NCBI GenBank assembly: GCA_046539225.1
Contig: JBKHHG010000018.1
Coordinates: 1-14,499 of the forward strand
Length of the DNA stretch: 14,499 bases
Direction: 5' to 3'
From: Candidatus Nanohaloarchaea archaeon
Lineage (GTDB): Archaea; Nanohalarchaeota; Nanosalinia; Nanosalinales; Nanosalinaceae
Part shown: in pieces, positions 1 through 13,784 of the stretch
Numbering within the stretch: the stretch's first letter is position 1
How the letters are laid out: the number at the start of each line of letters is the position of its first letter
Translations under genes and position numbers: made by a program
Notes under the pieces: generated by a model
Databases searched by the model: none
What the model saw: the letters and a program-made list of their open reading frames with translations, nothing else
Told to the model about the DNA's origin: nothing

Positions 1-388
1 CGTTCGAGTTTCTCTCCGCGTCGATTATCAGGTGGCTTATCACAGGATTTTTCTCCTTGTACTTTACATGGAGTTCTACTTCTCCTGAAGCCTCTGCATA
101 GATCATTGAATTAATATTTGCGGCGTGGAGCGCGTTCAACCTGTTTTCGTCCGACTTGATCAGATTAAAAGCTTTTTCACCTGCTTTCTCCAGTGCTTCA
201 TCTCCTGTGAAAACTTCAACGTCTCCTTCTGTCTCTATCTCCGGTTCTATATTCTCTTTATCTGTTATTTTTTCTTCAAGGTTTTCCGGGTATCTTGTCC
301 ATGTTCTTCCCGGTGTTCTGATGGATTCCGGCATTTCAAGGCCTTTAATTTTCTTACTGGATTCTTTCCTTATTTTTTCGAGTCTCAT
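1..388 (-). CDS. sufD: Fe-S cluster assembly protein SufD/SufBD family, 5' part; runs off the window
   Basis: Not in the ORF track. Manual translation from ATG at 388, which overlaps the sufB stop as ATGA: MRLEKIRKESSKKIKGLEMPESIRTPGRTWTRYP...ENRLNALHAAN...SHLIIDAERNS, open to base 1. NRLNALH and HLII parallel SufB NKFAALH and HTLIVA; position directly downstream of sufB. Confidence 0.85.
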   Translation of the reverse strand, partial: MRLEKIRKESSKKIKGLEMPESIRTPGRTWTRYPENLEEKITDKENIEPEIETEGDVEVFTGDEALEKAGEKAFNLIKSDENRLNALHAANINSMIYAEASGEVELHVKYKEKNPVISHLIIDAERNSN

Positions 389-1782
389 CCGAGGGAACCC
401 TCCATCTCGAGCTGGATTAACCGGTTTAGTTCGACGGCGTATTCAAGCGGTAGTTCTTTTGCGATCGGTTCTATGAAGCCTCTGACAATCATTTCCTTGG
501 CTTCTTCCTCGTCTATGCCTCTGCTCTGCATGTAGTGGATTTCCTCGTCGCCGATCCGCCCCACAGTCGCTTCATGCGCCATTTCTACATCATCTTCCTG
601 AACTTCGATGTATGGTTCTGTGTCACTTGTTGCTTCTTCTGAGAACATCAGTGCATCGCATTCAATCGATACTTTGCTGCCGTGGCTTCCTTCCGGTACT
701 CTGACCAGGCCTCTGTAGTTTGTTCTTCCGTCGCCCTGTGTTATGGACTTAGATTCGATTGTGGATTTGGTGTTTGGTGCGTTGTGGACGACTTTAGCTC
801 CTGTATCGATGTTCTGGCCGTCGCCGGCGTATCCAATCGTTATATGGTTGGCTCTGGCGCCTTCTCCGTTTAAATGGCTGGAGGGGTAGAGCATTGTGAC
901 TTTTGAGCCCATGCTTCCTGATATCCATTCCATGACGCCGTTTTCCGCGACTTTTGCTCTCTTTGTGTTCAGGTTGTACGTATTCTTGCTCCAGTTCTGA
1001 ACCGTTGAGTACTGGACGTGCGCATTTTCTTTTACGAATACTTCGACTGTTCCTGCGTGTAGGTTCGATTTCGTGTACTGGGGAGCGCTGCATCCTTCTA
1101 TGTAGTGGATGGTGCTGTTTTCCTCCGCTACGATCAGCGTGTGTTCGAACTGGCCCATTCCTTTCTGGTTCATCCTGAAGTAGGCCTGAACCGGGATTTC
1201 AACTTCTACACCTTCCGGTACGTAGACGAACGAGCCTCCGCTCCAGACTGCGCCGTGTAAAGCAGCGAACTTGTTGTCTTGCGGCGGGACGCAGCGGTTC
1301 ATGAAGTATTCTTTGACGAGATCCGGGTGCTCCTGCACTGCTTTGTCCATGTCCATGAAGATAACTCCTTTTTCCTCCCATTCCTCTTTCATGTTCTGGT
1401 AGACGACCTGGCTTTCGAACTGGGCGCCTACACCGGAGAGAGCTTCTTTCTCCGCTTCAGGGATTCCCAGCTTGTCAAAGGTCTCCTCTATCTCCTCCGG
1501 GACTTCGTCCCAGTCCTCTGCCTGTTCGGCATCCGGTCTAACGTAGTGAGAAATTTCTTCAAAGTCCAGTTCGGAGAGGTCTGGACCCCAGCTTGGCATG
1601 GGCCGTTTTTTGAAGTGTCTGAATGCTTCCAGTCGTTTTTCCAGCATCCATTCCGGCTCGTCTTTGTCTTCGGAGATTTTTCTGACTGTTTCTTCTGTCA
1701 GGCCTTTTCCTGCGTCGAATGCTTTCTTTGTACTGGTTACGTGGTTGAATCGTTCCTGGTTTTTCCGGATTTCTTCTGTCAT
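385..1782 (-). CDS. sufB: Fe-S cluster assembly protein SufB
   Basis: 465 aa with SufB hallmarks GQFEHTLI, YIEGCSAP, VQNWS, TNYRGLV, CDAL, HEATVG and ELPLEYAVELNRLIQLEMEGSLG. Confidence 0.97.
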   Translation of the reverse strand: MTEEIRKNQERFNHVTSTKKAFDAGKGLTEETVRKISEDKDEPEWMLEKRLEAFRHFKKRPMPSWGPDLSELDFEEISHYVRPDAEQAEDWDEVPEEIEETFDKLGIPEAEKEALSGVGAQFESQVVYQNMKEEWEEKGVIFMDMDKAVQEHPDLVKEYFMNRCVPPQDNKFAALHGAVWSGGSFVYVPEGVEVEIPVQAYFRMNQKGMGQFEHTLIVAEENSTIHYIEGCSAPQYTKSNLHAGTVEVFVKENAHVQYSTVQNWSKNTYNLNTKRAKVAENGVMEWISGSMGSKVTMLYPSSHLNGEGARANHITIGYAGDGQNIDTGAKVVHNAPNTKSTIESKSITQGDGRTNYRGLVRVPEGSHGSKVSIECDALMFSEEATSDTEPYIEVQEDDVEMAHEATVGRIGDEEIHYMQSRGIDEEEAKEMIVRGFIEPIAKELPLEYAVELNRLIQLEMEGSLG

Positions 1783-1805
1783 ATGTAAAGTTGGAGAAGC
1801 AAATC

Positions 1806-1811
1806 TTTAAA
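1806..1811 (-). promoter_or_regulatory. TATA box (TTTAAA) for leaderless sufB-sufD transcript
   Basis: TTTAAA lies at -29..-24 from the sufB ATG, typical archaeal spacing. Confidence 0.6.
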
Positions 1812-1822
1812 CTCTGGTATTT

Positions 1823-3061
1823 TTATCTAATCCGGTACCTGAGTATCGCCGCTACGCCGCCCATGTTTTCCAGTCTTCTTCCTTCTTCATGTTCGTTGCC
1901 TATGATCTCCAGGTCCGAGCTCATTTCTTCGGCTTTTTCTCCAAACTCGTCGACTATATCCGATAGCTCTTTCAGCTCCATGTCATGGCTGCATTCGCTG
2001 CATTCTTTTTCTTCAGGTATTGAGGCCTTGGCTTCGAACAGGTGGTCTTCGTGGCCTTCAGGACATTCAAACTCTGCGTAGTAGAGCTCGGTTGATCCGG
2101 AGATCAGGACGGTGTCGACTGCTCCAACGTCCAGGGCCTCTTTCACTCTTTCAGGTCCGTACTCGGATTTCCCGTTTTCTTTCTCCAGGTTTTCGAAAAA
2201 CTCTGTCACAAGGTTTTTCTCCTTTATAACCTGTGAGTCCTGGATTGCGTCTTCCGCCCGGGATACAAGTTCTTCGAGGCCTTCTTCTCCTGAAAAGTTT
2301 GTGGATTCTTTTGCGACTATTTCTTCCTGGAGCTCCTGGTGGATGTAGTTGTCCTCTATTAGTTTGTCCTTTGTGAATCCTGGGCCTCCGATTATCACTC
2401 CCAGCAGTTTGTCCTCTCTTTTCTTGGGTAGGAAGCTTTTCTTGGCGTTTTCTGCTATCTCGTTCATCCAGGTCTGGTACATCTCCTTTCTGAAACGCTG
2501 GAATCTCTGCGCTGACTGGCCTCCGGCCTTGGTCTTTCCGGGGACGTTGGAGCTCATCACGTGCTCGGTCTTGACAGAGTTGCCCTGGAGAAAGCCGATT
2601 GCTGCATCGTTTTTATCCGCTACCACGAGCCCATAAACTTTGTCGTCTACAACCATCTGCCTCAAAGGCTCCAGGACGAACTCTTTGTCGCAGCGGTAGT
2701 GCCGGGATTCGATGGGTTGCGGCGGGATAACCTCCCAGACATTGATATCAGGCCTTCCCTCTCGTTCCGACACGTTTCCGGCGAAGAACGCGACACCGTT
2801 TTCAGGGGTCTGCTGTTCTTCTTTCACTTTTCTCCCGATCTTGTCGAGCGCGGCCTGGACGTTTTTCCTGGTGTGTTTGGATTTGATGTTCTCTGCCTCT
2901 GAGGCCTCGCTGGTTACAAAGTCGGATATCTTCGACATGTCGTAACCCGCGGGGATATACAGTGAGACAAGCTCCGTGTTTCTTCCCCGTATGTCCTCCA
3001 GCTCTTTTATCAGCTTCTTCAGCTGGTACTTCGACATTTCCTGGTGTTTCTGGTCGCTCAT
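1823..3061 (-). CDS. prf1: Archaeal peptide chain release factor aRF1
   Basis: NIKS, YRCD and GGQS motifs, GPG, C-terminal GGVAAILRY, and a CPEGH...CSEC Zn-ribbon mini-domain. Confidence 0.97.
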   Translation of the reverse strand: MSDQKHQEMSKYQLKKLIKELEDIRGRNTELVSLYIPAGYDMSKISDFVTSEASEAENIKSKHTRKNVQAALDKIGRKVKEEQQTPENGVAFFAGNVSEREGRPDINVWEVIPPQPIESRHYRCDKEFVLEPLRQMVVDDKVYGLVVADKNDAAIGFLQGNSVKTEHVMSSNVPGKTKAGGQSAQRFQRFRKEMYQTWMNEIAENAKKSFLPKKREDKLLGVIIGGPGFTKDKLIEDNYIHQELQEEIVAKESTNFSGEEGLEELVSRAEDAIQDSQVIKEKNLVTEFFENLEKENGKSEYGPERVKEALDVGAVDTVLISGSTELYYAEFECPEGHEDHLFEAKASIPEEKECSECSHDMELKELSDIVDEFGEKAEEMSSDLEIIGNEHEEGRRLENMGGVAAILRYRIR

Positions 3062-3086
3062 GGTTCTGGTTACTCGGTAAAACTTA

Positions 3087-5642
3087 TTACTTCTTGACGA
3101 CCGCTGAAACCCCTTCGGTTTCGACGAGCTCTCCCTCGCCGGTGTAATTCTTCTGCTCGACTACTTCGAACATCTCGGGTTTGAGGTGTTCGCCCGCAAC
3201 CTCGAGTCTCCCGGATTCCAGCATGAACTCGTTGTTTTCAAGGGCCTCTTCTATCTCTCCGATTTTGTCGCCGTACTCGGGGCCTGCGTTCGAGTAGTTC
3301 AGCTTGATCTCCTTGATATTGGTCTCAAGCTCTGGAGCTTCTTCCTTTATCTCAAGCTGCTCGACGTGCATAACCTCTTTTACGGCTTCTTCAAGGCCTG
3401 TGATGTCGGTGAAGGCCTCGACCTTTTCCAGTTCCTGATTGAGCGGCATCTGGTTCTGCGACTTGTACTTTCGCAGGGCGGAGATAAGTTTCATCGCGTT
3501 CTCTCCTTTCTCAATGTCGGCCTTTACTCCTTCTTTTTCAGGCCATTCAGATCTGTGGATGCTGCTTTTTCTGTATACCGAGTTGTAGATCTCTTCCGTG
3601 ATATGCGGTGTGAAAGGCGCCAGCATTTTCAGAATCTTTCTATGGGTTTTTCTCAGGCCTGTCTCCGCGCTCGGGTTTTCGTCTTTCAGCCTCTGCTTGC
3701 TGATCTCCAGGTAGTCGTCGCAGAACGTGTTCCAGAAGAAGCTTCTGATCCTGTCCCGGGCCTTTGAGAACTCATGGTTTTCAAAGTTTTCAGTAACTTC
3801 TTCCACAACTTGATCGGTTTTCGCCAGCATCCATTCATCGATCGATTCTTCTACTTTTGTCTCTTCCTCTGTCAATGAGTCAACGAGCTTGGACGCGTTC
3901 CAGAGCTTTGTAAGCAGTTTCTCGCCCTCCACAAGGTCCTGATCCTTCAGTGGTAGGTCGTCTCCCGGCTTGACGGTTCCGGCCCAGTAACGCGCCGCAT
4001 CGACGGGATAATCTTCCAGTACTTCTTCAGGTGTTGTAACGTTTCCGCGGGACTTGCTCATCTTCTCCCGGTTTTCATCCAGGACATGCCCGTTTATCAG
4101 GACTTCATCGAAGGGAACTTCGCCGGTGTGCTCGTAGCACTTGACGACTGTATGGAAAAGCCAGAAACTTATGATGTCATGGCCCTGAGGCCTCAGATTC
4201 ATAGGGTATAGCTCGGGTCGCCCCATTTCCTCGCCGTTCCAGTCCGCGTTGATCAGAGGGGTCAGACTTGAGGTAGCCCATGTATCGAATACATCCTCTT
4301 CAGGCCTGAACTCTGTGTTTCCGCATTCGCTGCAGCTGTCGACAGGCGCGTCGTGTTCGATCGGGTCGACAGGCAGCTGGTCTCTATCCGCCACTACCTC
4401 TAACCCGCATTCTGTACAGTACCAGACAGGGAACGGTATACCCGAATCTCTCTGCCGGGAAATACACCAGTCCCATTCCAGGCCTTCGATCCAGTTCCTG
4501 TAACGGGTGAACATTTTCTCCGGGTTCCAGTCGATGTCCTTTCCTGCTTCAAGGTATTCCTCTTTCCTGTCCAGGACCTTGACGTACCACTGCTCTGTAA
4601 CCATGAACTCGATCTCTGTGTCGCATCTCTCGTGGACCTGCACGGTGTGATCGATCTCCCACCGATCAGTAAGTTTACCGTCTTCGTCCAGGTCTTCAAC
4701 TATTTCTTCACGGGCCTCTTCCGTCGAAAGGCCTTCATACTTCCCGGCTATACCTGTCATGGTTCCGGTCTCGTCGATCGCCTCCCGCAGATCAAGGTCG
4801 TGGGCCTGGTACCACTCGATATCGGTCTGGTCTCCGAACGTACAGCACATTACGACGCCTGTACCGGTCTCCATGTCAACCCTTTCATCTTCAATGATCG
4901 GGACCTCGTACTCGAAAAGCGGGACTTCGGCCTTCTCCCCGATAAGAGGCCTGTTACCTTCATCGTCAGGATGCACAAAGATCGCGACACACGCCGGAAG
5001 AAGCTCAGGCCTTGTCGTGGAGATAGTGATGGATCCGTTGCCTGTCGATAGGTCAAACTCTATATCGTTGAAATGCGAATGCTTCTCCATATCCTCGGTT
5101 TCAACCTGTGAGATAGCGGTGGAGCATTCAGGGCACCAGATGGCCGGAGCCTTTTCTCTGTATTCGCGGCCTTTCTCGTAGAGGTCGATGAACGAAAGCT
5201 GCGAAATCTTCTGCACCCTAGGATCAATAGTCTTGTACGTATTGTCCCAGTCCATCGAGAACGCGAACTCCTTCATGATATCCTCAAAGTTCTGCTCGTA
5301 CTCCTTACAGACCTCTCTAACCTTTTTCTGGAACTCGAAACGTTCAAAGTCCTGATGCCGGATACCGAGCTCTCTCTCCGTCAAACGCTCGGACGCGATA
5401 CCGTTGTTGTCGTAGCCGAACGGGAAGTACACGCTTTTCCCCCTCATCCTCTCAAACCGGGCCTTGAAATCCGTCAAAGTATTCCCATAGGTATGGCCAA
5501 AATGCAGATTCCCTGACACGGTTGGAGGCGGAGTATCTATAGAGTACACCTCCTCAGACTTGCTGTACTCGTAAGTACCTTCCTGCTGCCATTTTCCCTG
5601 CCATTTCTGCTCTATCCGCTCTGCATCGTAAGATCCATCCAT
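3087..5642 (-). CDS. valS: Valine--tRNA ligase, archaeal type
   Basis: DTPPPTVSG, HIGH-like HFGH, TTRPEL editing-domain motif, GTGVVMCCTFGD, DWCISRQR, DVFDTW, KMSKS. An SD-like GAGGT lies upstream. Confidence 0.97.
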   Translation of the reverse strand: MDGSYDAERIEQKWQGKWQQEGTYEYSKSEEVYSIDTPPPTVSGNLHFGHTYGNTLTDFKARFERMRGKSVYFPFGYDNNGIASERLTERELGIRHQDFERFEFQKKVREVCKEYEQNFEDIMKEFAFSMDWDNTYKTIDPRVQKISQLSFIDLYEKGREYREKAPAIWCPECSTAISQVETEDMEKHSHFNDIEFDLSTGNGSITISTTRPELLPACVAIFVHPDDEGNRPLIGEKAEVPLFEYEVPIIEDERVDMETGTGVVMCCTFGDQTDIEWYQAHDLDLREAIDETGTMTGIAGKYEGLSTEEAREEIVEDLDEDGKLTDRWEIDHTVQVHERCDTEIEFMVTEQWYVKVLDRKEEYLEAGKDIDWNPEKMFTRYRNWIEGLEWDWCISRQRDSGIPFPVWYCTECGLEVVADRDQLPVDPIEHDAPVDSCSECGNTEFRPEEDVFDTWATSSLTPLINADWNGEEMGRPELYPMNLRPQGHDIISFWLFHTVVKCYEHTGEVPFDEVLINGHVLDENREKMSKSRGNVTTPEEVLEDYPVDAARYWAGTVKPGDDLPLKDQDLVEGEKLLTKLWNASKLVDSLTEEETKVEESIDEWMLAKTDQVVEEVTENFENHEFSKARDRIRSFFWNTFCDDYLEISKQRLKDENPSAETGLRKTHRKILKMLAPFTPHITEEIYNSVYRKSSIHRSEWPEKEGVKADIEKGENAMKLISALRKYKSQNQMPLNQELEKVEAFTDITGLEEAVKEVMHVEQLEIKEEAPELETNIKEIKLNYSNAGPEYGDKIGEIEEALENNEFMLESGRLEVAGEHLKPEMFEVVEQKNYTGEGELVETEGVSAVVKK

Positions 5643-5769
5643 TTTTCAGTTAAACCTCATACAAAGCCGTTCATACCCAGCTTTAAATCCATTCCTCAGG
5701 CCTGTCGATCCACAGTATAAAGGCCTCAAGCTGGAACCGGAATTAGAAAGATTTTGAAAGTCCTGAAAC

Positions 5770-5853
5770 TCAAAGAGATTCAATGCCGTAGAAGCCATTC
5801 GGCTTCGAGTCCTGGAGCCGTACAAAACGGCCACCCTTGATTGAATAGGTCAT
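5770..5853 (-). other. Possible 27-aa small ORF (MTYSIKGGRFVRLQDSKPNGFYGIESL) and/or structured RNA element upstream of valS
   Basis: ATG at 5853, TGA at 5770-5772, TAATAA about 28-33 nt upstream. Overlaps nested inverted repeats at 5778-5846. Confidence 0.3.
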
Positions 5854-5878
5854 ACGGAGAGTATTAAATGTTCAACTG

Positions 5879-5886
5879 TTTTATTA
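5879..5886. promoter_or_regulatory. TATA-like element (TTTTATTA), possibly bidirectional
   Basis: At -32..-25 from ATG 5911 (+); its TAATAA complement is at -33..-28 from ATG 5853 (-). Confidence 0.5.
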
Positions 5887-5910
5887 GCTTCGCCACTGAA
5901 CACATTGAAC

Positions 5911-6474
5911 ATGAAAATCCTTGTGGTTGGGGACTGTCACGGTGAGAAACCGGAGATCCCCGAGGAGGATTTTGATCTTGTGCTCGCGGTCGGCGATATC
6001 TGCGGCGGGACGGATGAGATGCGTTCCGCCATGTTCGAGGCCTCTGAATCTGGAGAAGGGTGGTACGACGTTTTTGGAGAGGAAGAGGCGCGGAAAGCTG
6101 TCGAGGCTTCGATTGAAGAAGGCAGAGAAATCCTTGAAAAACTGGATTCTCTTGGCGTCCCTGTCTTCATTGTTCCCGGCAACTGGGACTGGACGGGAGA
6201 AAACTCTGACTGGGTCTTTCTCAAGGGCAGAGGCTTCCCGGAGATGCTGAAAGATTTTGAAAACATCTACAACATTAATTTTTCAGGTAAAAGCTTTGGA
6301 GGCCTCAGCTTCATCGGTTACGGCCCCTGCAGCGGCCCGGAGATTCCGCAGTACGAGGACGATAAACTGGGAGAAGAACTGAAACAGAACCCTGATTTGA
6401 AGGAGGGACAGCTCCAGATACTTGAAGAAGCCGAAGAACAGCTAAAGCAGGAAAAGCAGAAGATCCAGGCCTAA
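5911..6474 (+). CDS. Calcineurin-like metallophosphoesterase, apparently C-terminally truncated (187 aa)
   Basis: Start taken at ATG 5911 (MKILVVGDCHG). Motifs DxH, GD (VGDICG) and GNxD (GNWD) present; the late His and GHxH motifs are absent. Confidence 0.8.
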   Translation: MKILVVGDCHGEKPEIPEEDFDLVLAVGDICGGTDEMRSAMFEASESGEGWYDVFGEEEARKAVEASIEEGREILEKLDSLGVPVFIVPGNWDWTGENSDWVFLKGRGFPEMLKDFENIYNINFSGKSFGGLSFIGYGPCSGPEIPQYEDDKLGEELKQNPDLKEGQLQILEEAEEQLKQEKQKIQA

Positions 6475-7241
6475 AAACTGCTTAACTTTCTGTCCCCGGG
6501 ATACTCCATACCGTCTTCCGCGAAAACAACTTTCTGCTCCACTTCTTCGTCCAGCCAGGCCTTCTCCTCTTCCATATCCGAGTTCAGGAACTTCTCGCCG
6601 AAATGCGTGATTATCACGGTCGAGGCCTCGGAATCCCCGAGAATCTTCGGCACATCGTCCAGCTTTGTATGTTTCCGGGTGTTGACATCTCTCGGGAAGA
6701 AACAGTTGACGACGATGGTATCACAGTCGCTGTAGAAATCCACGAGTTCATCGCTGTAGGCTGTGTCGGTCCAGAAACCGAACTTTCTGTCGCCGTCAAA
6801 AACCTTGAGGCCTACACATCTGGGCTCGCTGTGGAACATCTCCTGCGACTCGACTTCAAGGCCTTTAACCTCGGCATCCCGGTCGGAGAGGTTGATGACA
6901 TCGGTGCACATTTTCTGATGGTAGTCCGAGACAGACGGCTGGATATCTCCATAACCGTTCAGAACCGATTCAGGCCCCATCAACCTACACGGGTTATCAT
7001 GTATCAACGAGACCAGCTCGATCAAAGGCTCCGCATCACTGTAATGGTCGAGGTGGGCGTGCGAAACAATCACGCCTTCAAGTTTCTCGGTGTCGTACCC
7101 CTGGCAGTGTACAGTGCTGCCTGGGCCCGGGTCCAGGTAGAGAGAGGCCTCATCCCCTTCAACTATAATTCCAGCGGTCTTCCTCAACTGCTTTCCCATC
7201 GTACGGTGGCCTCCGCCCGTACCAACAAAATGAAGCTTCAT
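6471..7241 (-). CDS. MBL-fold metallo-hydrolase (RNase Z/PhnP-like superfamily)
   Basis: Start taken at ATG 7241 (MKLHFVGTGGG). DPGPG, SHAHLDH (HxHxDH), later H, DT and THF motifs. Substrate unknown. Confidence 0.9.
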   Translation of the reverse strand: MKLHFVGTGGGHRTMGKQLRKTAGIIVEGDEASLYLDPGPGSTVHCQGYDTEKLEGVIVSHAHLDHYSDAEPLIELVSLIHDNPCRLMGPESVLNGYGDIQPSVSDYHQKMCTDVINLSDRDAEVKGLEVESQEMFHSEPRCVGLKVFDGDRKFGFWTDTAYSDELVDFYSDCDTIVVNCFFPRDVNTRKHTKLDDVPKILGDSEASTVIITHFGEKFLNSDMEEEKAWLDEEVEQKVVFAEDGMEYPGDRKLSSF

Positions 7242-7262
7242 AACCACGAAAGACCTGAGAAA

Positions 7263-7270
7263 TATAAAAA
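7263..7270. promoter_or_regulatory. Shared TATA element (TATAAAAA) in a 51-bp divergent gap
   Basis: TATAAA is at -30..-25 from ATG 7293 (+); TTTTTATA is at -29..-22 from ATG 7241 (-). Confidence 0.6.
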
Positions 7271-7292
7271 ACCTAAAAACCAAGACAGTATT

Positions 7293-7667
7293 ATGTCACT
7301 ACTCGAAAACAACATGTCTCTTGAGAAGGTCTGGCAAGCAGCGGAAAACCGCCTTGAAGAACCGGTAGAAAGATTCGAAAACCTTGTCATCGACTTAAAC
7401 CGCAACCTGGATGAGGCCTACCTCGCGGTCTACCCCGAACAGTCGGGAGAAGATGTAGAAAAGTGGTGGGAAGGACAGGAAGAAGGGAGAGACGTATACA
7501 TACTATCCCTCGACCAAGCTTACGCAGGCGACGAGTTCAACTACATAGGATCAAGGCTTGAAGGCCTTACACAGCTACAGGCCTACGATCTCGTCCATAT
7601 CTCGGGAGGTAAAATTCAGGCGGAAAGAGCCGAGAACCAGCTCGACACCCATACAAGGATAGTGTAG
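7293..7667 (+). CDS. Hypothetical acidic protein (124 aa, MSLLENNMSLEKVWQ...)
   Basis: 3' part of track ORF 6603..7667. ATG at 7293 follows a TATA box, and the acidic composition matches the real genes. The upstream part of that ORF is antisense to the MBL gene. Confidence 0.75.
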   Translation: MSLLENNMSLEKVWQAAENRLEEPVERFENLVIDLNRNLDEAYLAVYPEQSGEDVEKWWEGQEEGRDVYILSLDQAYAGDEFNYIGSRLEGLTQLQAYDLVHISGGKIQAERAENQLDTHTRIV

Positions 7668-7728
7668 AAATCTTTTCTCAATATGCTTAAAGTTTAGGCC
7701 TCAGTCAGGGGGTAGGAACCACAAAGTA

Positions 7729-7734
7729 TTTAAG
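7729..7734 (+). promoter_or_regulatory. TATA box (TTTAAG)
   Basis: At -28..-23 from ATG 7757. Confidence 0.55.
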
Positions 7735-7756
7735 TTGTTACTACTAAATAACAACT

Positions 7757-7870
7757 ATGAACTTTGTGGCGGAATCTTACGATGATGTCGTGGAAAAAGG
7801 CCTTGAAGACCTGAGGGAAGAGGTTGGAAGGCCTAAAATCCAGCATAAAAAACTGAGTATCTATACCTGA
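7757..7870 (+). CDS. Small hypothetical protein (37 aa, MNFVAESYDDVVEKGLEDLREEVGRPKIQHKKLSIYT)
   Basis: Below the track length cutoff. TATA box at correct spacing and acidic N-terminal half; stop is 1 nt before the next ORF. Confidence 0.55.
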   Translation: MNFVAESYDDVVEKGLEDLREEVGRPKIQHKKLSIYT

Positions 7871-7871
7871 G

Positions 7872-8216
7872 GTGGTTGAAATTATAGGAAGACGCGATGT
7901 TGATGTGGAGTATGAAGGTAAGACTTTCCGTGTGAACTCCCGTCACGAGGAAAGGCCTGGTGGAGGCGAGTCCAGAGTCATAAGTATCTTCGACTCTGAA
8001 GGCCTCTATGGTTTTCTCGAGATGGAATCGGGTTCTGGCCTTGAAGATGCAGAGGCGTATCTACAGCAGCCGGGAAAGGGAGGCCTTCAACAGGTAGATC
8101 CTGGCGAGTTTGAGGAGATATACGCTCAGCTTAATGACAAAGAGAAGAGCTGGGATACAGAGCTTGAGCTTGAAAACCCTGGTGAAACTGCGGAGCCTTA
8201 CAGGTGGGATAGTTGA
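7872..8216 (+). CDS. Hypothetical acidic protein (about 114 aa; start uncertain)
   Basis: Open frame with E/D-rich composition and no recognisable motif. GTG start, or alternative starts downstream of GAGGTG. Confidence 0.7.
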   Translation: MVEIIGRRDVDVEYEGKTFRVNSRHEERPGGGESRVISIFDSEGLYGFLEMESGSGLEDAEAYLQQPGKGGLQQVDPGEFEEIYAQLNDKEKSWDTELELENPGETAEPYRWDS

Positions 8217-8953
8217 ATTTTTCGCGTAGAGATACTCACTCGGCTGAGTCCATGAATGAAGATATTGATAACGGTGTCTGGCCTGATCACACGACTCAGG
8301 TTAACCGTTACGATAACTTTGTTGGAGCGTTGTATGGGAGAGCGGATTTTGATGAAAGCGGTGAACTCGATATACTTGATGTCGGTAGTTCGACGGGCGA
8401 GGCCTCGCGGTACTTTGCCGATCAGATCGAGTCAGAGTACGGTGTAGAGACCAATGTCATTGGGGCAGATGTTGGTGAGAAAGCCGCGAATAAAGCAGGA
8501 ACTCAGCTTGACGCAGCTGTTCAGGCGGATGCAAGAAATCTTCCTTTCGAAGATGATTCCTTTGATATTGTAACCTGTAAGACTCTGCTATCAAGGATTA
8601 GGCCTGAAGATCAGGCCGAGGCGCTAAGTGAGATTGAAAGGGTTGCTTCCGATGAGGCCTATGTGGCTGTTGAAGTTGACCCTGGTATGGATGATAGGCC
8701 TGTTACTGGTGAAAACTATGTTTTGCGGGGGGATGAGTTAAGCGATATCAAAGAGTCAACTGAAGGCTTTGAAAAGTTGCTTGAAGACGAGTTAGAGGGC
8801 TATGAGACCAGACGGTTTTTCCAGAGCTCGGAGGAGCCTGTTGATGCAGAGGTTTACAATGAAGGAGACTTCCTCGGGGCCACGATGCATCAAGCCGATA
8901 AGTATAAGGAAGAAGAGGAGGCAGGCGGCGAAGAAAACATGATAATCGCCTGA
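8213..8953 (+). CDS. Class I SAM-dependent methyltransferase (Methyltransf_11/25-like); start at 8213 (TTG) or 8252 (ATG)
   Basis: ILDVGSSTG (motif I variant), VIGAD, ADARNLPFEDDSFDIVTC, ALSEIERV, followed by an acidic tail. Confidence 0.85.
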   Translation: MNFSRRDTHSAESMNEDIDNGVWPDHTTQVNRYDNFVGALYGRADFDESGELDILDVGSSTGEASRYFADQIESEYGVETNVIGADVGEKAANKAGTQLDAAVQADARNLPFEDDSFDIVTCKTLLSRIRPEDQAEALSEIERVASDEAYVAVEVDPGMDDRPVTGENYVLRGDELSDIKESTEGFEKLLEDELEGYETRRFFQSSEEPVDAEVYNEGDFLGATMHQADKYKEEEEAGGEENMIIA

Positions 8954-11041
8954 CTACCTGACTTCGCTTCCTTTCTCTATTTCTTCTTCAAGGCCTAAAA
9001 GCTCTACGTTTCCTTCTTTGTCTTCCGCGGCGAGCATCATGCATTCGCTTTTTTCTCCTCTCAGTTCTGTGGGTTCAAGGTTGACAAGGACTATGACCTG
9101 TCGGCCTTCCAGTTCTTCTTCTGTGTAGTGGTTTCTGAGGCCTGCGCAGGTCTGAAGTTTTTGATCTCCGACATCGAGCTGTACTTTGTAGAGTCTGTCG
9201 GCGTTGGAGTGTTCTTCGACTTTCAGTACTTCTCCGACCCTTAGATCCATTTCCTGGAAATCTTCGAAGCTTACAAGGCCTTCCATCGAGTCTTCTGTGT
9301 CGGAGGCTTCAAAGCCCTGGCTCTCTTCATTTTCCTGTTTTTGGGGCCTGTCTTTTTCTGTATCGATTTTTTGGAACAGGATTTCTTTCTCACCGAGTCT
9401 ATGTCCTGGTTCCAGGTTTCCGAGCAGAGGCTCGACGAGCTCGTCGATACCTTCTTCTGTGTGTATATCGGTGTTCAGCATGTCCGCGATCTTCTGTGAG
9501 GCATCCGGTGTGTACGGATAAAGAAGTACTCCGATGGCCCTGATAAGGTGTAGAGCTACGTGTATGGTCTCTTCTCTTCTTTCTTTGTTGTTCCAGGGTT
9601 CTTCCTCGCTGAGGTACTGGTCGCCGGTCCTTGCGATCTCGACGGCTTTCTCAACCCCGGTTTTCAGGTCGTGGCCTTCGAAGGCCTCTATGTATTCATC
9701 TACCTTGTTCAAGGCCTCTTTTTCTACTTCCCTGTCTTTCTGCGTCAGCTCTGCTCCCGGCACCTTGTTTTCGAACCACTGTTCTGAAAGTGAGAGGGTC
9801 CGGTTGACGAAGTTTCCGACCGTATCATTCAGTACGTTGTTGATCTCTGATTCAAAGTCTTCCAATGAAAAGGTCGAGTCGTGGTGCTGCGGCAGGTTTT
9901 TCGCGAGATAGAATCTCCAGTAATCGCTGGGGTATAGATCCAATGCGTCCTCGGTTGAAAGGCCTTTTCCACGGCTCTTGGAGAACTTTGTGTCTTCAGC
10001 GAGCAGGAACTGCTGGATGAACTCGTAATGCGGAAGGCTGTACTCCTCGTCTTCAGTGGTTGCGCCCATCAACATGCTTGGCCAGATCACTGTGTGGAAT
10101 ATGGTATTGTCTTTCCCGATCGAGTAGTATACCTCGCTCCGGTCGTTCATCCAGTAATCCTTCCACTCCTCTTCATCGTTGAAGAGTTCGCGTGTAAACC
10201 CTATGTATCCTATAGGTGCGTCGAACCAGACGTACAGTACCTTGTCCCCGTAGATCTCTCCATCCAGTCTCTCCACATCGAGGCCTTCCTCCTCGATTTT
10301 TTCATTTACTTTTTCTACCGGGATGTCAAATCCCCAGTCGATATCCCTGGTGATGCATCTTGCCTCGGTATCTTCGATAGAGTTCTTGACTTCTTCAAGC
10401 TTGTTTTCCGGGATCGGGGCCTCTCCGCTCTCCAGCCATTCCAGAAGCTTGTCTTTGAACCTGGGAAGATCGAGGAAAAGATGTTTTGTCTCCCGGAACT
10501 CTATGTCTTCGCTGCCGGAGATCGTGGAGTAAGGATTGATAAGTTCTTCAGGTTCGAGCAGGGCGCCGCATTCGTCGCACTGGTCGCCCCGTGCAAGGCC
10601 TCCGCATTCAGGGCAGTCGCCTTCAATGTATCTATCCGGCAAGAATCTTCCGTCTTCCTCGGAGTAAGGCAGGGTCTGCTCTTTTTCCTGAATATAACCG
10701 TTTGTGTACAGCTCTACAAACATGTCGTGGGTCTGCCTTCGGTTAAAATCGCTGTGAGTATCTGAATAAATCGAGAAATCCATGTCGAAATCGTTCAGCA
10801 CAGACCTGACTTTTTCATGGTTCTGCTGCTTCAGTTCTTCTACTGGAGTATCCTTCTTCAAGGCCTCGAGTTCAAGCGGGGTTCCATGGACGTCGCTCCC
10901 GCATACGAAGATGTTGTCGTTTCCTCTCAGGTCCTGGTACCGGTGGAAAATATCGGCGGGTAAGAGACTGCCTACAATGTTTCCAAGATGCGGTACTCCG
11001 TGGATGTATGGAAGTGCTGAAGTAATTGTTTTCCGTGTCAT
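8954..11041 (-). CDS. metG: Methionine--tRNA ligase with C-terminal tRNA-binding (Trbp111-like OB-fold) domain
   Basis: ALPY..HLGN, GSDVHG, CPECG..GDQCDECG, YVWFDAPIGY, GKDN, KFSKS; C-terminal SFEDFQEMDLRVG..H.NADRL..NLEP..LRG..SECMMLAA. Confidence 0.97.
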   Translation of the reverse strand: MTRKTITSALPYIHGVPHLGNIVGSLLPADIFHRYQDLRGNDNIFVCGSDVHGTPLELEALKKDTPVEELKQQNHEKVRSVLNDFDMDFSIYSDTHSDFNRRQTHDMFVELYTNGYIQEKEQTLPYSEEDGRFLPDRYIEGDCPECGGLARGDQCDECGALLEPEELINPYSTISGSEDIEFRETKHLFLDLPRFKDKLLEWLESGEAPIPENKLEEVKNSIEDTEARCITRDIDWGFDIPVEKVNEKIEEEGLDVERLDGEIYGDKVLYVWFDAPIGYIGFTRELFNDEEEWKDYWMNDRSEVYYSIGKDNTIFHTVIWPSMLMGATTEDEEYSLPHYEFIQQFLLAEDTKFSKSRGKGLSTEDALDLYPSDYWRFYLAKNLPQHHDSTFSLEDFESEINNVLNDTVGNFVNRTLSLSEQWFENKVPGAELTQKDREVEKEALNKVDEYIEAFEGHDLKTGVEKAVEIARTGDQYLSEEEPWNNKERREETIHVALHLIRAIGVLLYPYTPDASQKIADMLNTDIHTEEGIDELVEPLLGNLEPGHRLGEKEILFQKIDTEKDRPQKQENEESQGFEASDTEDSMEGLVSFEDFQEMDLRVGEVLKVEEHSNADRLYKVQLDVGDQKLQTCAGLRNHYTEEELEGRQVIVLVNLEPTELRGEKSECMMLAAEDKEGNVELLGLEEEIEKGSEVR

Positions 11042-11065
11042 AACTCAGGTTTAGGCCTTGAATTC

Positions 11066-11100
11066 TTATTAGTTTCAAGTCTGGCGCTGTTGCTTTTTTA
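11066..11100. promoter_or_regulatory. Divergent TATA-like boxes for metG (TAATAA, 11066-11071, -) and the vWA gene (TTTTTTA, 11094-11100, +)
   Basis: Each lies at about -30..-25 from its ATG (11041 and 11125). Confidence 0.5.
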
Positions 11101-11124
11101 TTCCAGAGAGTCTAACTGGTGTTT

Positions 11125-13542
11125 ATGTTAAGGGCCTTTCTGCTGGGGGTTTTCCTCGTTTTCGTCCTGTCGCCGGCAGCCGCCCAGAGCGCGGATATTA
11201 TAGATTCGAGTATAGAGGATAGGAAAGGCGGCCAGGATGGTTTCGTACTTGGAAGGCCTGCTAAATCTACTTTTGAATACCGTATAAATGACCCCTATCA
11301 GCCTATTGACACGGCCCTGGCTATAGATGAGTCTGGGAGTATGGGCGGGGTTATGGACGACGCCAAGAATGGGGCCAAGAACTATGTTGAGAATACCAGG
11401 ACATCTGACGGGGATGAAAACGCAGTTATCTCGTTTGAGGACAGTGCTTATACAAGACAGTCTTTGACTACAGATAAGGATAAGGCTAAAGATGCTATAG
11501 ATAGTATCAGTGATGACGGCAGTACTGACTTGCCTGCAGGCGTTGAAAAGGCCCATGACGAACTTAAGAACGGTGATAATGATATACAGGTTATGATCGT
11601 GCTGGCGGACGGCGGGGGAGGGGACCCCGGCACTGAAGCGGATGCTGCGCGAAGTGATGGTATTGAAGTCCATGGAATAATGTATGGCAGCGGGGCGAGC
11701 ACGAGCGAGTTTGAGAGTATGACGGATTCCGACGACTGTACCACTGATTCCAGCGAGAATAACGACGATGATACCTGCTGGTACGCCGAATCAGGCACGA
11801 TCGATGAAGTTTATAATGCTATTCAGGAAGAGGTTGAAGAAGAAACAGATGTTGATCTCAGGCTGAGACTAAGAGATATGGCGTACACAGATGACAGCTA
11901 TGATAGTTACAGTGATCTTGGAGGCCCCAATGAGGAATACGTTAGAAGCTTTCAGGATGTTGAGGCGGGGGAAAAGACCGGATCGATTGAATGGTATCCA
12001 ACAGACTTCGGCAACTTTGATCTATTGACAGGAGATTCAATTTTGGAGGTTACGACCGATGACGGTACATCCCAGTATGATTTCAGCAACTCATTCAATA
12101 CAGATGTAGGATACGTGGATTTCGAATTAACTGATTTTACAGTAGAAAGGGATGATTCCCAGGTCAGGGCTGAGGCCGAAGTCACGAACACCGGAGACGT
12201 TGATTCTCTGGGCACTTCCGAAGCCTCCAGCACAAGAGAGCTCTGGTTGAAAGATTCATCCAGTCATGTATCGGCAGATATTCCTGAGGTACCGGCTGGA
12301 GATTCAAAGAACATCAGCTTGAATGTAGGCAACTCTAACAGCTTGGTCGACGGGAACGGTATCGAGGAACTATACCTGCATGCTGATCCAACAGGTTACT
12401 GGGACTCTGTAGACAGCTCAAGCATCGCTGTAGGGGGAGGCGAAGGAGAAGTCTTGGAGCCTAACGAGGATGATAACGAGGCCTCAGTCGGATATCCTCC
12501 AAGAGTTAATGCCCTGAACTTCGATGATATTTCGGGGCAGCACGCCTTCAGTATCGAGGCCTCTGTCGATATGCTGACTGATGGAAGCGACTTCGGAGAA
12601 TGCAGACTGAAGTTCACGAACCTGGAGAACGGCGAAGAGTTCCCGAGTAATGGACGGGTTCAGGGAAGTTTAACTGAGGAGGATTCGGATACCGCAACCT
12701 GTAGATACGATAACTTTAATTCCTCTGTCACAGGATTCGAACCGACTGATAACGTGGAGGTAAATATTACGGCAGAGAACAGGCAGGGAGGAACCGGCTG
12801 GAACGCCGATAACCATAGGATTCCGAATGAGCCGCCTGAAATCGTGAGAATGGAGCCCAGAAACGATGAACCTATACTGGATAGAGATGTTGAGCTCCTT
12901 ATCGAGGTAGACGATCCTGAAGGAGATGATATTGAACACGTGAGGTTCAACGACTCTGTTGAAAACGAGATTATTGAAGATAGGCCTAATCCGCCCCAGC
13001 AAAACACTTTTATCGTAGAATGGGAAGACCTGGATCTCGGAGAATATGAATGGGAAGCATTCGTAAAGGACAAATGGGGCTCCAGCGAACGTACTGCCTC
13101 TTTTGAAAGAGTTGTATCCCGGATATACAGGACCCAGAGCCGTATCGAACATGAGTACAGCTCCCTGATAATAGATGAAGGCGGTCAGGGAAGCTTCTTC
13201 TTTGAGGCGGATGTGGACACAGACAATAGAACAGTAACCACTTACCTTGAATCCAGTGATCTTGACGCAGAGTTCGTGGACTCAGGCCTCAGCCAGGAGA
13301 CATATGAAGTTGACACCGGCGACCCCGACAGGTTCCAGATCCAGGTATCAGGAGATAACCCTGGTAAACACGAGCTGAAGATAATTACAGAAGACGACAC
13401 GGTAGATACAAACACGACCGAAACTTTCCCGGTTTACGTCAGAAGCGCGGAGGCAGAAGGCAGAGAAGTTCCAGGCCTTTCACAGGCCTATATTCTTGCA
13501 GCAGCTTTCCTCAGTTCTGTTCTCTATTTTGCTTTACTCTGA
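11125..13542 (+). CDS. Secreted, C-terminally anchored vWA-domain surface protein with CARDB/Ig-like domains
   Basis: Signal peptide MLRAFLLGVFLVFVLSPAAA; MIDAS DESGS...T...LADG; CARDB-like VTNTGD..ADP..EPNEDDN; Ig-like NEPPEI..DDPEGD..YEW; C-terminal VPGL plus hydrophobic helix. Confidence 0.88.
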   Translation: MLRAFLLGVFLVFVLSPAAAQSADIIDSSIEDRKGGQDGFVLGRPAKSTFEYRINDPYQPIDTALAIDESGSMGGVMDDAKNGAKNYVENTRTSDGDENAVISFEDSAYTRQSLTTDKDKAKDAIDSISDDGSTDLPAGVEKAHDELKNGDNDIQVMIVLADGGGGDPGTEADAARSDGIEVHGIMYGSGASTSEFESMTDSDDCTTDSSENNDDDTCWYAESGTIDEVYNAIQEEVEEETDVDLRLRLRDMAYTDDSYDSYSDLGGPNEEYVRSFQDVEAGEKTGSIEWYPTDFGNFDLLTGDSILEVTTDDGTSQYDFSNSFNTDVGYVDFELTDFTVERDDSQVRAEAEVTNTGDVDSLGTSEASSTRELWLKDSSSHVSADIPEVPAGDSKNISLNVGNSNSLVDGNGIEELYLHADPTGYWDSVDSSSIAVGGGEGEVLEPNEDDNEASVGYPPRVNALNFDDISGQHAFSIEASVDMLTDGSDFGECRLKFTNLENGEEFPSNGRVQGSLTEEDSDTATCRYDNFNSSVTGFEPTDNVEVNITAENRQGGTGWNADNHRIPNEPPEIVRMEPRNDEPILDRDVELLIEVDDPEGDDIEHVRFNDSVENEIIEDRPNPPQQNTFIVEWEDLDLGEYEWEAFVKDKWGSSERTASFERVVSRIYRTQSRIEHEYSSLIIDEGGQGSFFFEADVDTDNRTVTTYLESSDLDAEFVDSGLSQETYEVDTGDPDRFQIQVSGDNPGKHELKIITEDDTVDTNTTETFPVYVRSAEAEGREVPGLSQAYILAAAFLSSVLYFALL

Positions 13543-13702
13543 CTATGTAACCCGCAACCCTGTTCCTGAGCCTCTTCGACTTGAACTCCTCGGTATCGCT
13601 CAAGATATCCTTGTTCTCATCGAAATCCTCGGAGAACTCTTTATCAGAGTCAACGAGATCCTTCGCCAGCCTCTTAATATAGGTCTGTCTAACTCTTCCC
13701 AT
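13511..13702 (-). CDS. rps17e: 30S ribosomal protein S17e
   Basis: MGRVRQTYIKR...FSEDFDENK...SKRLRNRVAGYI is the S17e signature. Confidence 0.96.
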   Translation of the reverse strand: MGRVRQTYIKRLAKDLVDSDKEFSEDFDENKDILSDTEEFKSKRLRNRVAGYIVRVKQNREQN

Positions 13703-13726
13703 ACCAGAAATACAGGCCTAAACCTT

Positions 13727-13732
13727 CTTAAA
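13727..13732 (-). promoter_or_regulatory. TATA box (TTTAAG) for rps17e
   Basis: At -30..-25 from the rps17e ATG, with a purine-rich stretch upstream. Confidence 0.6.
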
Positions 13733-13784
13733 CCCTCTTTCCAATCCCAAAGACAGAAAAACATCTGAGGCCTAAAACCCTTTC

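Follow-up and report, generated by a model that had tools for sequence, protein, structure and literature searches.

The hexamer AGGCCT is strongly over-represented throughout the genome of a nanohaloarchaeon and is abundant in some members of its family and scarce in others. We analysed it starting from a stretch of 14,499 nucleotides from Candidatus Nanohaloarchaea archaeon (the window), which is contig C18 of genome G000 (606,781 bp, 38 contigs, 82% complete). The over-abundance is confirmed: G000 carries 2,850 copies, or 1 per 213 bp, and AGGCCT is its top-ranked hexamer. An earlier sequence-only reading had listed 59 starts in the window, all of which were recovered in a recount (59/59 exact, zero missed), and had likened the word to the cyanobacterial highly iterated palindrome HIP1; its view of a HIP-like, genome-wide and frame-independent signal is borne out by the G000 counts, frames and spacers. 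A far-reaching account, which we hold possible rather than probable, is that AGGCCT would be an archaeal highly iterated palindrome (HIP) arising from a strand-bias system that acts on AGGCC at short range and independently of methylation, toggles between close relatives and has rewritten ~1 in 130 codon positions of the proteome.

Abundance and distribution of AGGCCT

The motif is present on 38/38 G000 contigs at 1.7-5.8 per kb, so that the earlier concern about an excess confined to one contig does not apply. Genome-wide observed/expected (O/E) ratios under Markov models are 20 at order 0, 16 at order 1 and 5.9 at order 2, where the motif itself causes inflation; with the motif masked during training 135-202 copies are expected, giving a 14-21x excess. 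In coding DNA (coding and spacer DNA were separated by our own calls of 733 genes) 2,557 copies are observed vs 447 in a synonymous-codon shuffle and 199 in a full codon shuffle, an excess of 5.7x over the former. The three frames hold 447, 930 and 1,180 of these copies vs 85, 179 and 183 in the synonymous shuffle, and Arg-Pro pairs are written AGG CCT in 447/523 cases. Spacers are the densest compartment (5.7 sites per kb), with 278 sites in 49,071 spacer positions vs 8-33 expected. This spacer excess likewise answers the question of codon-pair preference, for which a dicodon-preserving shuffle would retain AGG-CCT by construction.

It is extremely improbable that the excess merely follows from preferences for codons, codon pairs or amino acids, from the avoidance of hairpins or from an assembly artefact. 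AGG, GCC, GGC and CCT are common codons, but the surplus over the synonymous shuffle, its spread over three frames and the density of the spacers are not what such preferences would leave, only 2-7% of allowed sites are filled in poor relatives whose proteomes are similar, and the word recurs in 12 genomes and many metagenome contigs. We take this explanation to be refuted because of the spacer excess together with the comparison with relatives.

Two further features of sequence composition were observed in G000. CTAG is strongly avoided (133 copies vs 980 expected at order 2, genome-wide), an avoidance that is absent in the AGGCCT-rich relative G022 (O/E 0.8) and apparently absent in congener loci of G001, G002 and G004; it is a recent pressure, separate from that on AGGCCT. 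At gene boundaries, sites peak 21 to 17 positions ahead of called start codons (-21 to -17) in G000 and not in G022, while a peak just past stop codons is found in both.

Across the phylum 12/70 genomes are rich in AGGCCT, all within one family; the comparison across Nanohaloarchaeota that the sequence-only reading had called for returned 0/20 rich genomes in other families. Within the family the rich genomes (12/50, at 2.0-4.7 per kb with genome sizes rounded) are four in genus g1 (G000 included), 3/3 in g7, 3/3 in g19 and 2/6 species in g2. One g1 genome, G003, is intermediate at 0.95 per kb, and the other 37 family genomes lie at 0.05-0.7. In a 360-gene quartet G000 and G022 are grouped by 95 genes vs 21 and 18, a grouping unchanged after removal of motif columns, and in a synthetase comparison g1, g19 and g7 are closest to G000, with the rich g2 members no closer than the poor ones. 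On the basis of the quartet and the synthetase ranking, either the trait arose once and was then lost in some lineages, or g2 acquired it a second time. A SufB tree (L037-L060) that mixes rich with poor genomes was set aside, being contradicted by the 360-gene grouping, and the conflict suggests SufB transfer inside the family. The trait is labile: occupancy among 29 metagenome loci varies in close relatives from 0.89 down to 0.43 (L348) and, in a small sample, 1/7 (L343).

Filling of allowed positions, half-sites and short-range exclusion

We define an allowed position as a place where the protein synonymously permits AGGCCT. In G000 2,557/3,252 allowed coding positions (79%) are occupied, compared with 60% in G022, 6.5% in poor G018 and 1.7% in poor G021, while three control palindromes occupy 0.5-12% of theirs. 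Allowed positions themselves are more frequent, at 17.5 per 1,000 codons in G000 vs 8.9-9.3 in poor genomes, and the peptides that permit the word exceed expectation in G000 (RP 1.66x, GL 1.45x, [EKQ]A[FYCWLS] 2.0x), an excess not seen in G018 or G021. Because allowed positions and permissive peptides are approximately doubled, the force behind AGGCCT is strong enough to alter proteins. Across 360 orthologs, 901/1,424 sites of G000 fall at places where the proteins of both poor genomes rule AGGCCT out. The sequence-only reading had suggested conservation at orthologous positions as a check; 312/1,424 G000 sites are common to G022, so that positions are shared, but weakly (312/487 vs 65/134).

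Sites fill wherever they are tolerated. Their density of ~5.3 per kb falls to 2.3 in the most conserved genes (>80% identical to G018), and genes that we take from their sequence to be EF-1alpha-, GAPDH- and RadA-like have 0-1 site each. Zero sites occur in two sets of 11 and 33 tRNA genes, and in the rRNA of G022 there are 0 in 16S and 2 in 23S. A G022 stretch at 210-230 kb, part of an integrase-bounded element, holds 5 sites in 20 kb vs ~47 expected; the 29-kb integrated element (L073:5191 to L074:14066) carries an integrase, heavy-metal-type genes and a primase/helicase-like open reading frame (ORF) and is nearly motif-free.

This footprint on the proteome resembles that of the uptake sequences of Pasteurellaceae and Neisseriaceae, for which PMC2817400 describes doubled peptides, a concentration in poorly conserved genes and scarcity in recent foreign DNA. 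An uptake or recombination signal (like the DNA uptake and uptake signal sequences, or Chi-like as proposed for HIP1), by which site-bearing DNA would be favoured and spread, is nevertheless quite unlikely in our estimate, although it would fit the footprint, and a report (bioRxiv 10.1101/2024.09.10.611283) has transformation raised by HIP1. DprA was found in 0/5 genomes, 3 of them rich (ComEC was not searched), which weakly disfavours the uptake signal named in the sequence-only reading, and the exclusion over 30 bp described below is far shorter than a DNA fragment. Uptake sequences known so far are also longer and non-palindromic, and AGGCCT is a palindrome of only 6 bp.

The unit that is favoured is best read as the half-site AGGCC, the palindrome being two overlapping half-sites, because variants at the end bases are enriched and internal variants stay near 1. 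In G022 all three end variants (NGGCCT) stand at 2.9-4.2x in genes and 2.6-3.7x in spacers, and the six internal variants at 0.6-1.2; in G000 the variants are weaker (end 0.9-2.7x, internal 0.5-1.6x).

Sites also exclude one another over short distances. In G000 the occupancy of allowed positions next to an occupied neighbour is 12/51 (0.24) at 6-9 bp and 62/120 (~0.5) at 10-17 bp; it reaches ~0.7 for neighbours 18-34 bp away and 0.75-0.80 at greater distances, with the same trend in G022 (0.27 rising to ~0.6). In rich genomes GGCC-GGCC pairs with a separation of <18 bp stand at 0.4-0.6 of baseline vs 0.9-1.25 in G018, and the controls (CCGG pairs and inverted WSSSS) at 0.75-1.4. The repulsion extends to half-sites and, more weakly, to direct pairs; it was not seen for CCGG, TCGA, AGCT or GATC pairs, for matched inverted 5-mers or for GGCC pairs of G018. 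Long-range periodicity was not detected in the closed G022 genome, whose Fourier spectra in 1-kb and 5-kb bins stayed within the 95% level of shuffled data, by a test simpler than the one in PMC5861425. Motif-specific 10-bp or nucleosome-type phasing was not found around sites, and 10-bp AT phasing was rejected as a property of the motif, since it is generic and equal around control words.

Exclusion of this kind would also be expected if AGGCCT were a selected site of an abundant chromosome-organising protein, bound as a dimer to a pair of AGGCC half-sites and covering 20-30 bp, where any one site would bring a small benefit and close neighbours would be redundant. We consider this alternative unlikely, though a serious one. 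The motif-specific short-range exclusion suits it, as do a spacing slightly more even than random (coefficient of variation 0.885 vs 0.94, gaps <2 kb) and a weak preference for A at +3 in spacers (0.50 vs 0.35 for other CCT in G000; smaller, 0.38 vs 0.32, in G022), and passages of PMC5861425 argue that HIP1 is selected for chromosome structure. At congeneric loci, 200/244 AGGCCT sites are retained vs 204/835 other palindromes where amino acids are identical, which would speak for a bound site; however, this is the retention expected from ~80% independent filling and shows filling rather than site-specific selection, because synonymous sites are saturated. A bound site is further disfavoured by the equality of AT phasing with control words and the lack of periodicity, by DNA-binding candidates (RHH-like, wHTH-like, AbrB-like) that do not co-segregate with the motif, and by histones, which number 3-4 per genome in 5/5 genomes tested, rich and poor alike. 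G000 and G022 have a fourth histone type in common, which was rejected as a candidate because it is apparently missing from rich G005 and G010 (3 histones each).

A proposed strand bias and the search for a responsible gene

HIP1 has remained unexplained for three decades, and its study has been tied to cyanobacterial methylases. Like HIP1, AGGCCT is a short palindrome whose copies, genic and intergenic alike, far outnumber expectation, its one-off variants are enriched chiefly at the end bases (clearly in G022, less so in G000), and it is kept between relatives beyond control palindromes while being sporadically absent from others. It differs in being archaeal and another word than GCGATCGC, a hexamer with a GGCC core; in its density (4,700 per Mb in G000 vs 300-2,700 for HIP1); in having no shared cognate methyltransferase; in a saturation distance of ~30-60 bp vs the 1,000 nt proposed for HIP; and in having no long-range periodicity detected in G022. 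AGGCCT thus works like a highly iterated palindrome without being a member of HIP1, beside which cyanobacteria have alternate HIPs (GGCGCC, GCsGC and rCCGGy, according to PMC4390886, PMC5861425 and PMC13756078). No published description of an AGGCCT excess in archaea was found in main texts, without supplements, of a mostly open literature, and main-text passages of PMC11001535, PMC10266531 and PMC10609329 show no AGGCC. What the present analysis adds is the ranking of half-sites and palindrome, an exclusion over short distances tested against controls, a count across the phylum and a list of excluded genes.

The sequence-only reading had placed an (A)GGCC(T) methyltransferase among the possible causes, and this part of its proposal is not supported. 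PF00145 (C5) and PF01555 (N6/N4) were searched in 25 family genomes and PF02086 (D12) in 50, and the G000 and G022 proteomes were additionally scanned for methyltransferase motifs. A C5 methyltransferase occurs in 1/7 rich genomes and an N6/N4 enzyme above the cut-off, a type III Mod, in 1/7; neither type is found in two closed rich genomes or in G000, D12 enzymes are found in 0/13 rich or intermediate genomes, and the DNA methyltransferases of G022 are one type I and one type III system. No DNA methyltransferase family is common to the rich genomes among those searched (type I HsdM was not searched family-wide).

GGCC-core type II specificities include HaeIII and NgoPII, and StuI recognises AGGCCT. 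AGGCCT shares the GGCC core with the sites of such restriction-modification systems, but the association has the opposite sign: genomes bearing a system avoid the word and rich genomes lack a system. A HaeIII-like C5 methylase with an NgoPII-family nuclease is complete in 2/50 family genomes, G020 and G024 (L001, L002), which hold only 73 and 97 copies of AGGCCT; the NgoPII family is found in 2 poor genomes and in 0/13 of those that are rich or intermediate. G021 (L013) has two neighbouring N6/N4 methyltransferases and avoids GGCC (O/E 0.25) and GATC (0.46).

A mark or selecting enzyme might instead be external (a host methyltransferase or nuclease acting through cell contact) or be an unrecognised modification enzyme, driving a classical methylation-directed ratchet. 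We find this quite unlikely as well, even though it would account for the missing co-segregating gene and for patchiness inside one genus. GGCC-type restriction systems do circulate within the family, and methylation across host-symbiont contact has been reported in the direction from symbiont to host (PMC11001535, in part). Methylation by itself, however, enriches no word, and the rich genera are apparently one clade, which favours an inherited factor.

In search of a responsible gene we compared G000 and G022 with G018 and 76% of G021 (780 of 1,028 kb), which yielded 47 shared candidates, 225 G022-only proteins (scanned with Pfam in G022) and 83 reverse-pattern genes; the lists are limited by the partial G021 and by the fact that no rich g2 member was read whole. 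RHH-like and wHTH-like proteins, a cytidine deaminase, DUF6884 and an 83-aa unknown each failed a 5-genome panel, an AbrB-like protein passed the panel and failed family-wide, and Mrr was present in 2/3 rich and 1/2 poor genomes. An OGG-like glycosylase (weak PF21790 match) is not sufficient, occurring in 8/8 rich or intermediate genomes but in 9/17 poor ones too (one of these partial), and may still be necessary for motif richness. This glycosylase and canonical Ogg (G000 C1:9295-9813; L098:10346-10867) are patchy and partly complementary across the family; loss of Ogg as the cause was rejected for want of co-segregation. G022 carries ThyX, where G018 and G021 carry ThyA and DHFR (L069:513-2192 and L122:14959-16579). 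In a virus scan for triple sites, at least 80 loci with full flanks included none at 2 sites per kb or nanohaloarchaeal-looking (a further 42 triple-site loci were too short for judgement), and a proviral primase-like query gave zero matches. The cause may lie in a gene outside the tested set, in allelic variation of a shared protein or in the host.

Elhai's ratchet for HIP predicts enriched one-off words, fixation at the doubly protected palindrome and loss of new sites near old ones (PMC4390886, in part). All three are observed for AGGCCT, with a reach of tens of bases, from which a density above that of HIP1 would follow, and the contrast between end and internal variants corresponds to the one-round/two-round pattern of that model. 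Because the methyl mark is missing, our proposal is that AGGCC is directly recognised by a factor of repair or conversion. This putative cellular factor would recognise AGGCC on double-stranded DNA, to which the palindrome would show one half-site per strand, and would bias repair or gene conversion in its vicinity, with the site-bearing strand retained as the template for ~30-60 bp. Site-creating mutations would then be fixed and site-destroying mutations erased, while a new site next to an old one would gain little. The result would be a molecular-drive ratchet as in Elhai's model, but one that acts at short range and needs no dedicated methyltransferase. What we infer here is the factor itself, its strand bias and the pathway of repair, and the claim that an AGGCC-recognising factor biases short-patch repair or conversion toward the site-bearing strand is, in our judgement, a plausible one that falls somewhat short of an even chance.

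Several observations weigh against this strand bias. Elhai's model requires a methyl mark, and we know of no methylation-free analogue of it. No enzyme was found: 7/47 shared candidates and 1/83 reverse-pattern genes were tested and none co-segregates, and NucS is present in 5/5 genomes with about equal conservation in rich and poor ones. The half-sites of G000 are far less enriched than the palindrome would imply, and generic GC-rich inverted hexamers in genes are themselves reduced to 0.65-0.8 of the synonymous shuffle in several 6-23 bp bins of both rich genomes (0.89-1.05 in G018). Strain single-nucleotide polymorphisms are not depleted near sites (8/29 within 30 bp vs ~24% expected, the 29 examined being among 40 listed of 184), proximity to a shared motif brings no better conservation of fourfold sites, though these are saturated, and a protein footprint accounts for the short-range exclusion equally well.

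An independent archaeal case that is denser than HIP1 and has no shared methylase parts the HIP phenomenon from the methylase explanation. Relatives without the motif make the cause testable, and the gene search space is small because the genomes are of 1 Mb and species within single genera range from rich through intermediate to poor. Concrete predictions follow from the half-site pattern and from the exclusion over 30 bp. A DNA-level force that alters protein sequence in a DPANN symbiont bears on binning, the dating of horizontal transfer and the phylogenetics of the group. If true, the methylation-independent strand bias would amount to a novel form of sequence-directed molecular drive, operating in NucS-carrying cells.

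Sites and genes of the window

The AGGCCT copies of the window are listed with its genes in the table; 51 are genic and 8 lie in spacers. By frame (0/1/2) the genic sites divide into 5/9/6 on the + strand and 5/10/16 on the - strand, and AGGCCT makes up 59/106 GGCC occurrences.

Table. Genes and AGGCCT sites along the window.
Feature	Position	Strand	AGGCCT sites and remarks
Dispersed AGGCCT copies	339..13773		59; among the 2,850 of the whole genome
ORF of unknown function, cut at window end	2..388	-	1 (339)
SufB	385..1782	-	3 (707, 1182, 1700)
aRF1 release factor	1823..3061	-	4
Class I tRNA synthetase, valyl type (name inferred)	3087..5642	-	9
Spacer sites	5698..5726		2 (5698, 5721)
Metallophosphoesterase	5905..6474	+	3
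Metallo-beta-lactamase-fold protein	6471..7283	-	5
ORF of unknown function	7293..7667	+	3
Spacer sites	7696..7834		3 (7696, 7798, 7829)
ORF of unknown function	7872..8216	+	3
Class I S-adenosylmethionine (SAM) methyltransferase (Methyltransf_11/25)	8213..8953	+	4
Methionyl-tRNA synthetase	8954..11041	-	9
Spacer site	11053..11058		1
VWA-domain protein	11119..13542	+	7; 1.2 kb without sites at 11260-12478
Spacer sites	13714..13773		2 (13714, 13768)

The SAM methyltransferase had zero matches to DNA-methylase families. The nanohaloarchaeal origin presumed earlier was upheld, the named homologs of the window's aRF1 being from Nanohaloarchaea (e.g. 91% identity). Long pieces of the window recur with few differences in contigs of 2/3 sequencing runs compared, one of which may be its source sample, and next to none of the window is present in the third run (X3). 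The metallophosphoesterase is possibly truncated, with 187-189 aa vs 268 aa in its G022 homolog and 149 residues aligned.

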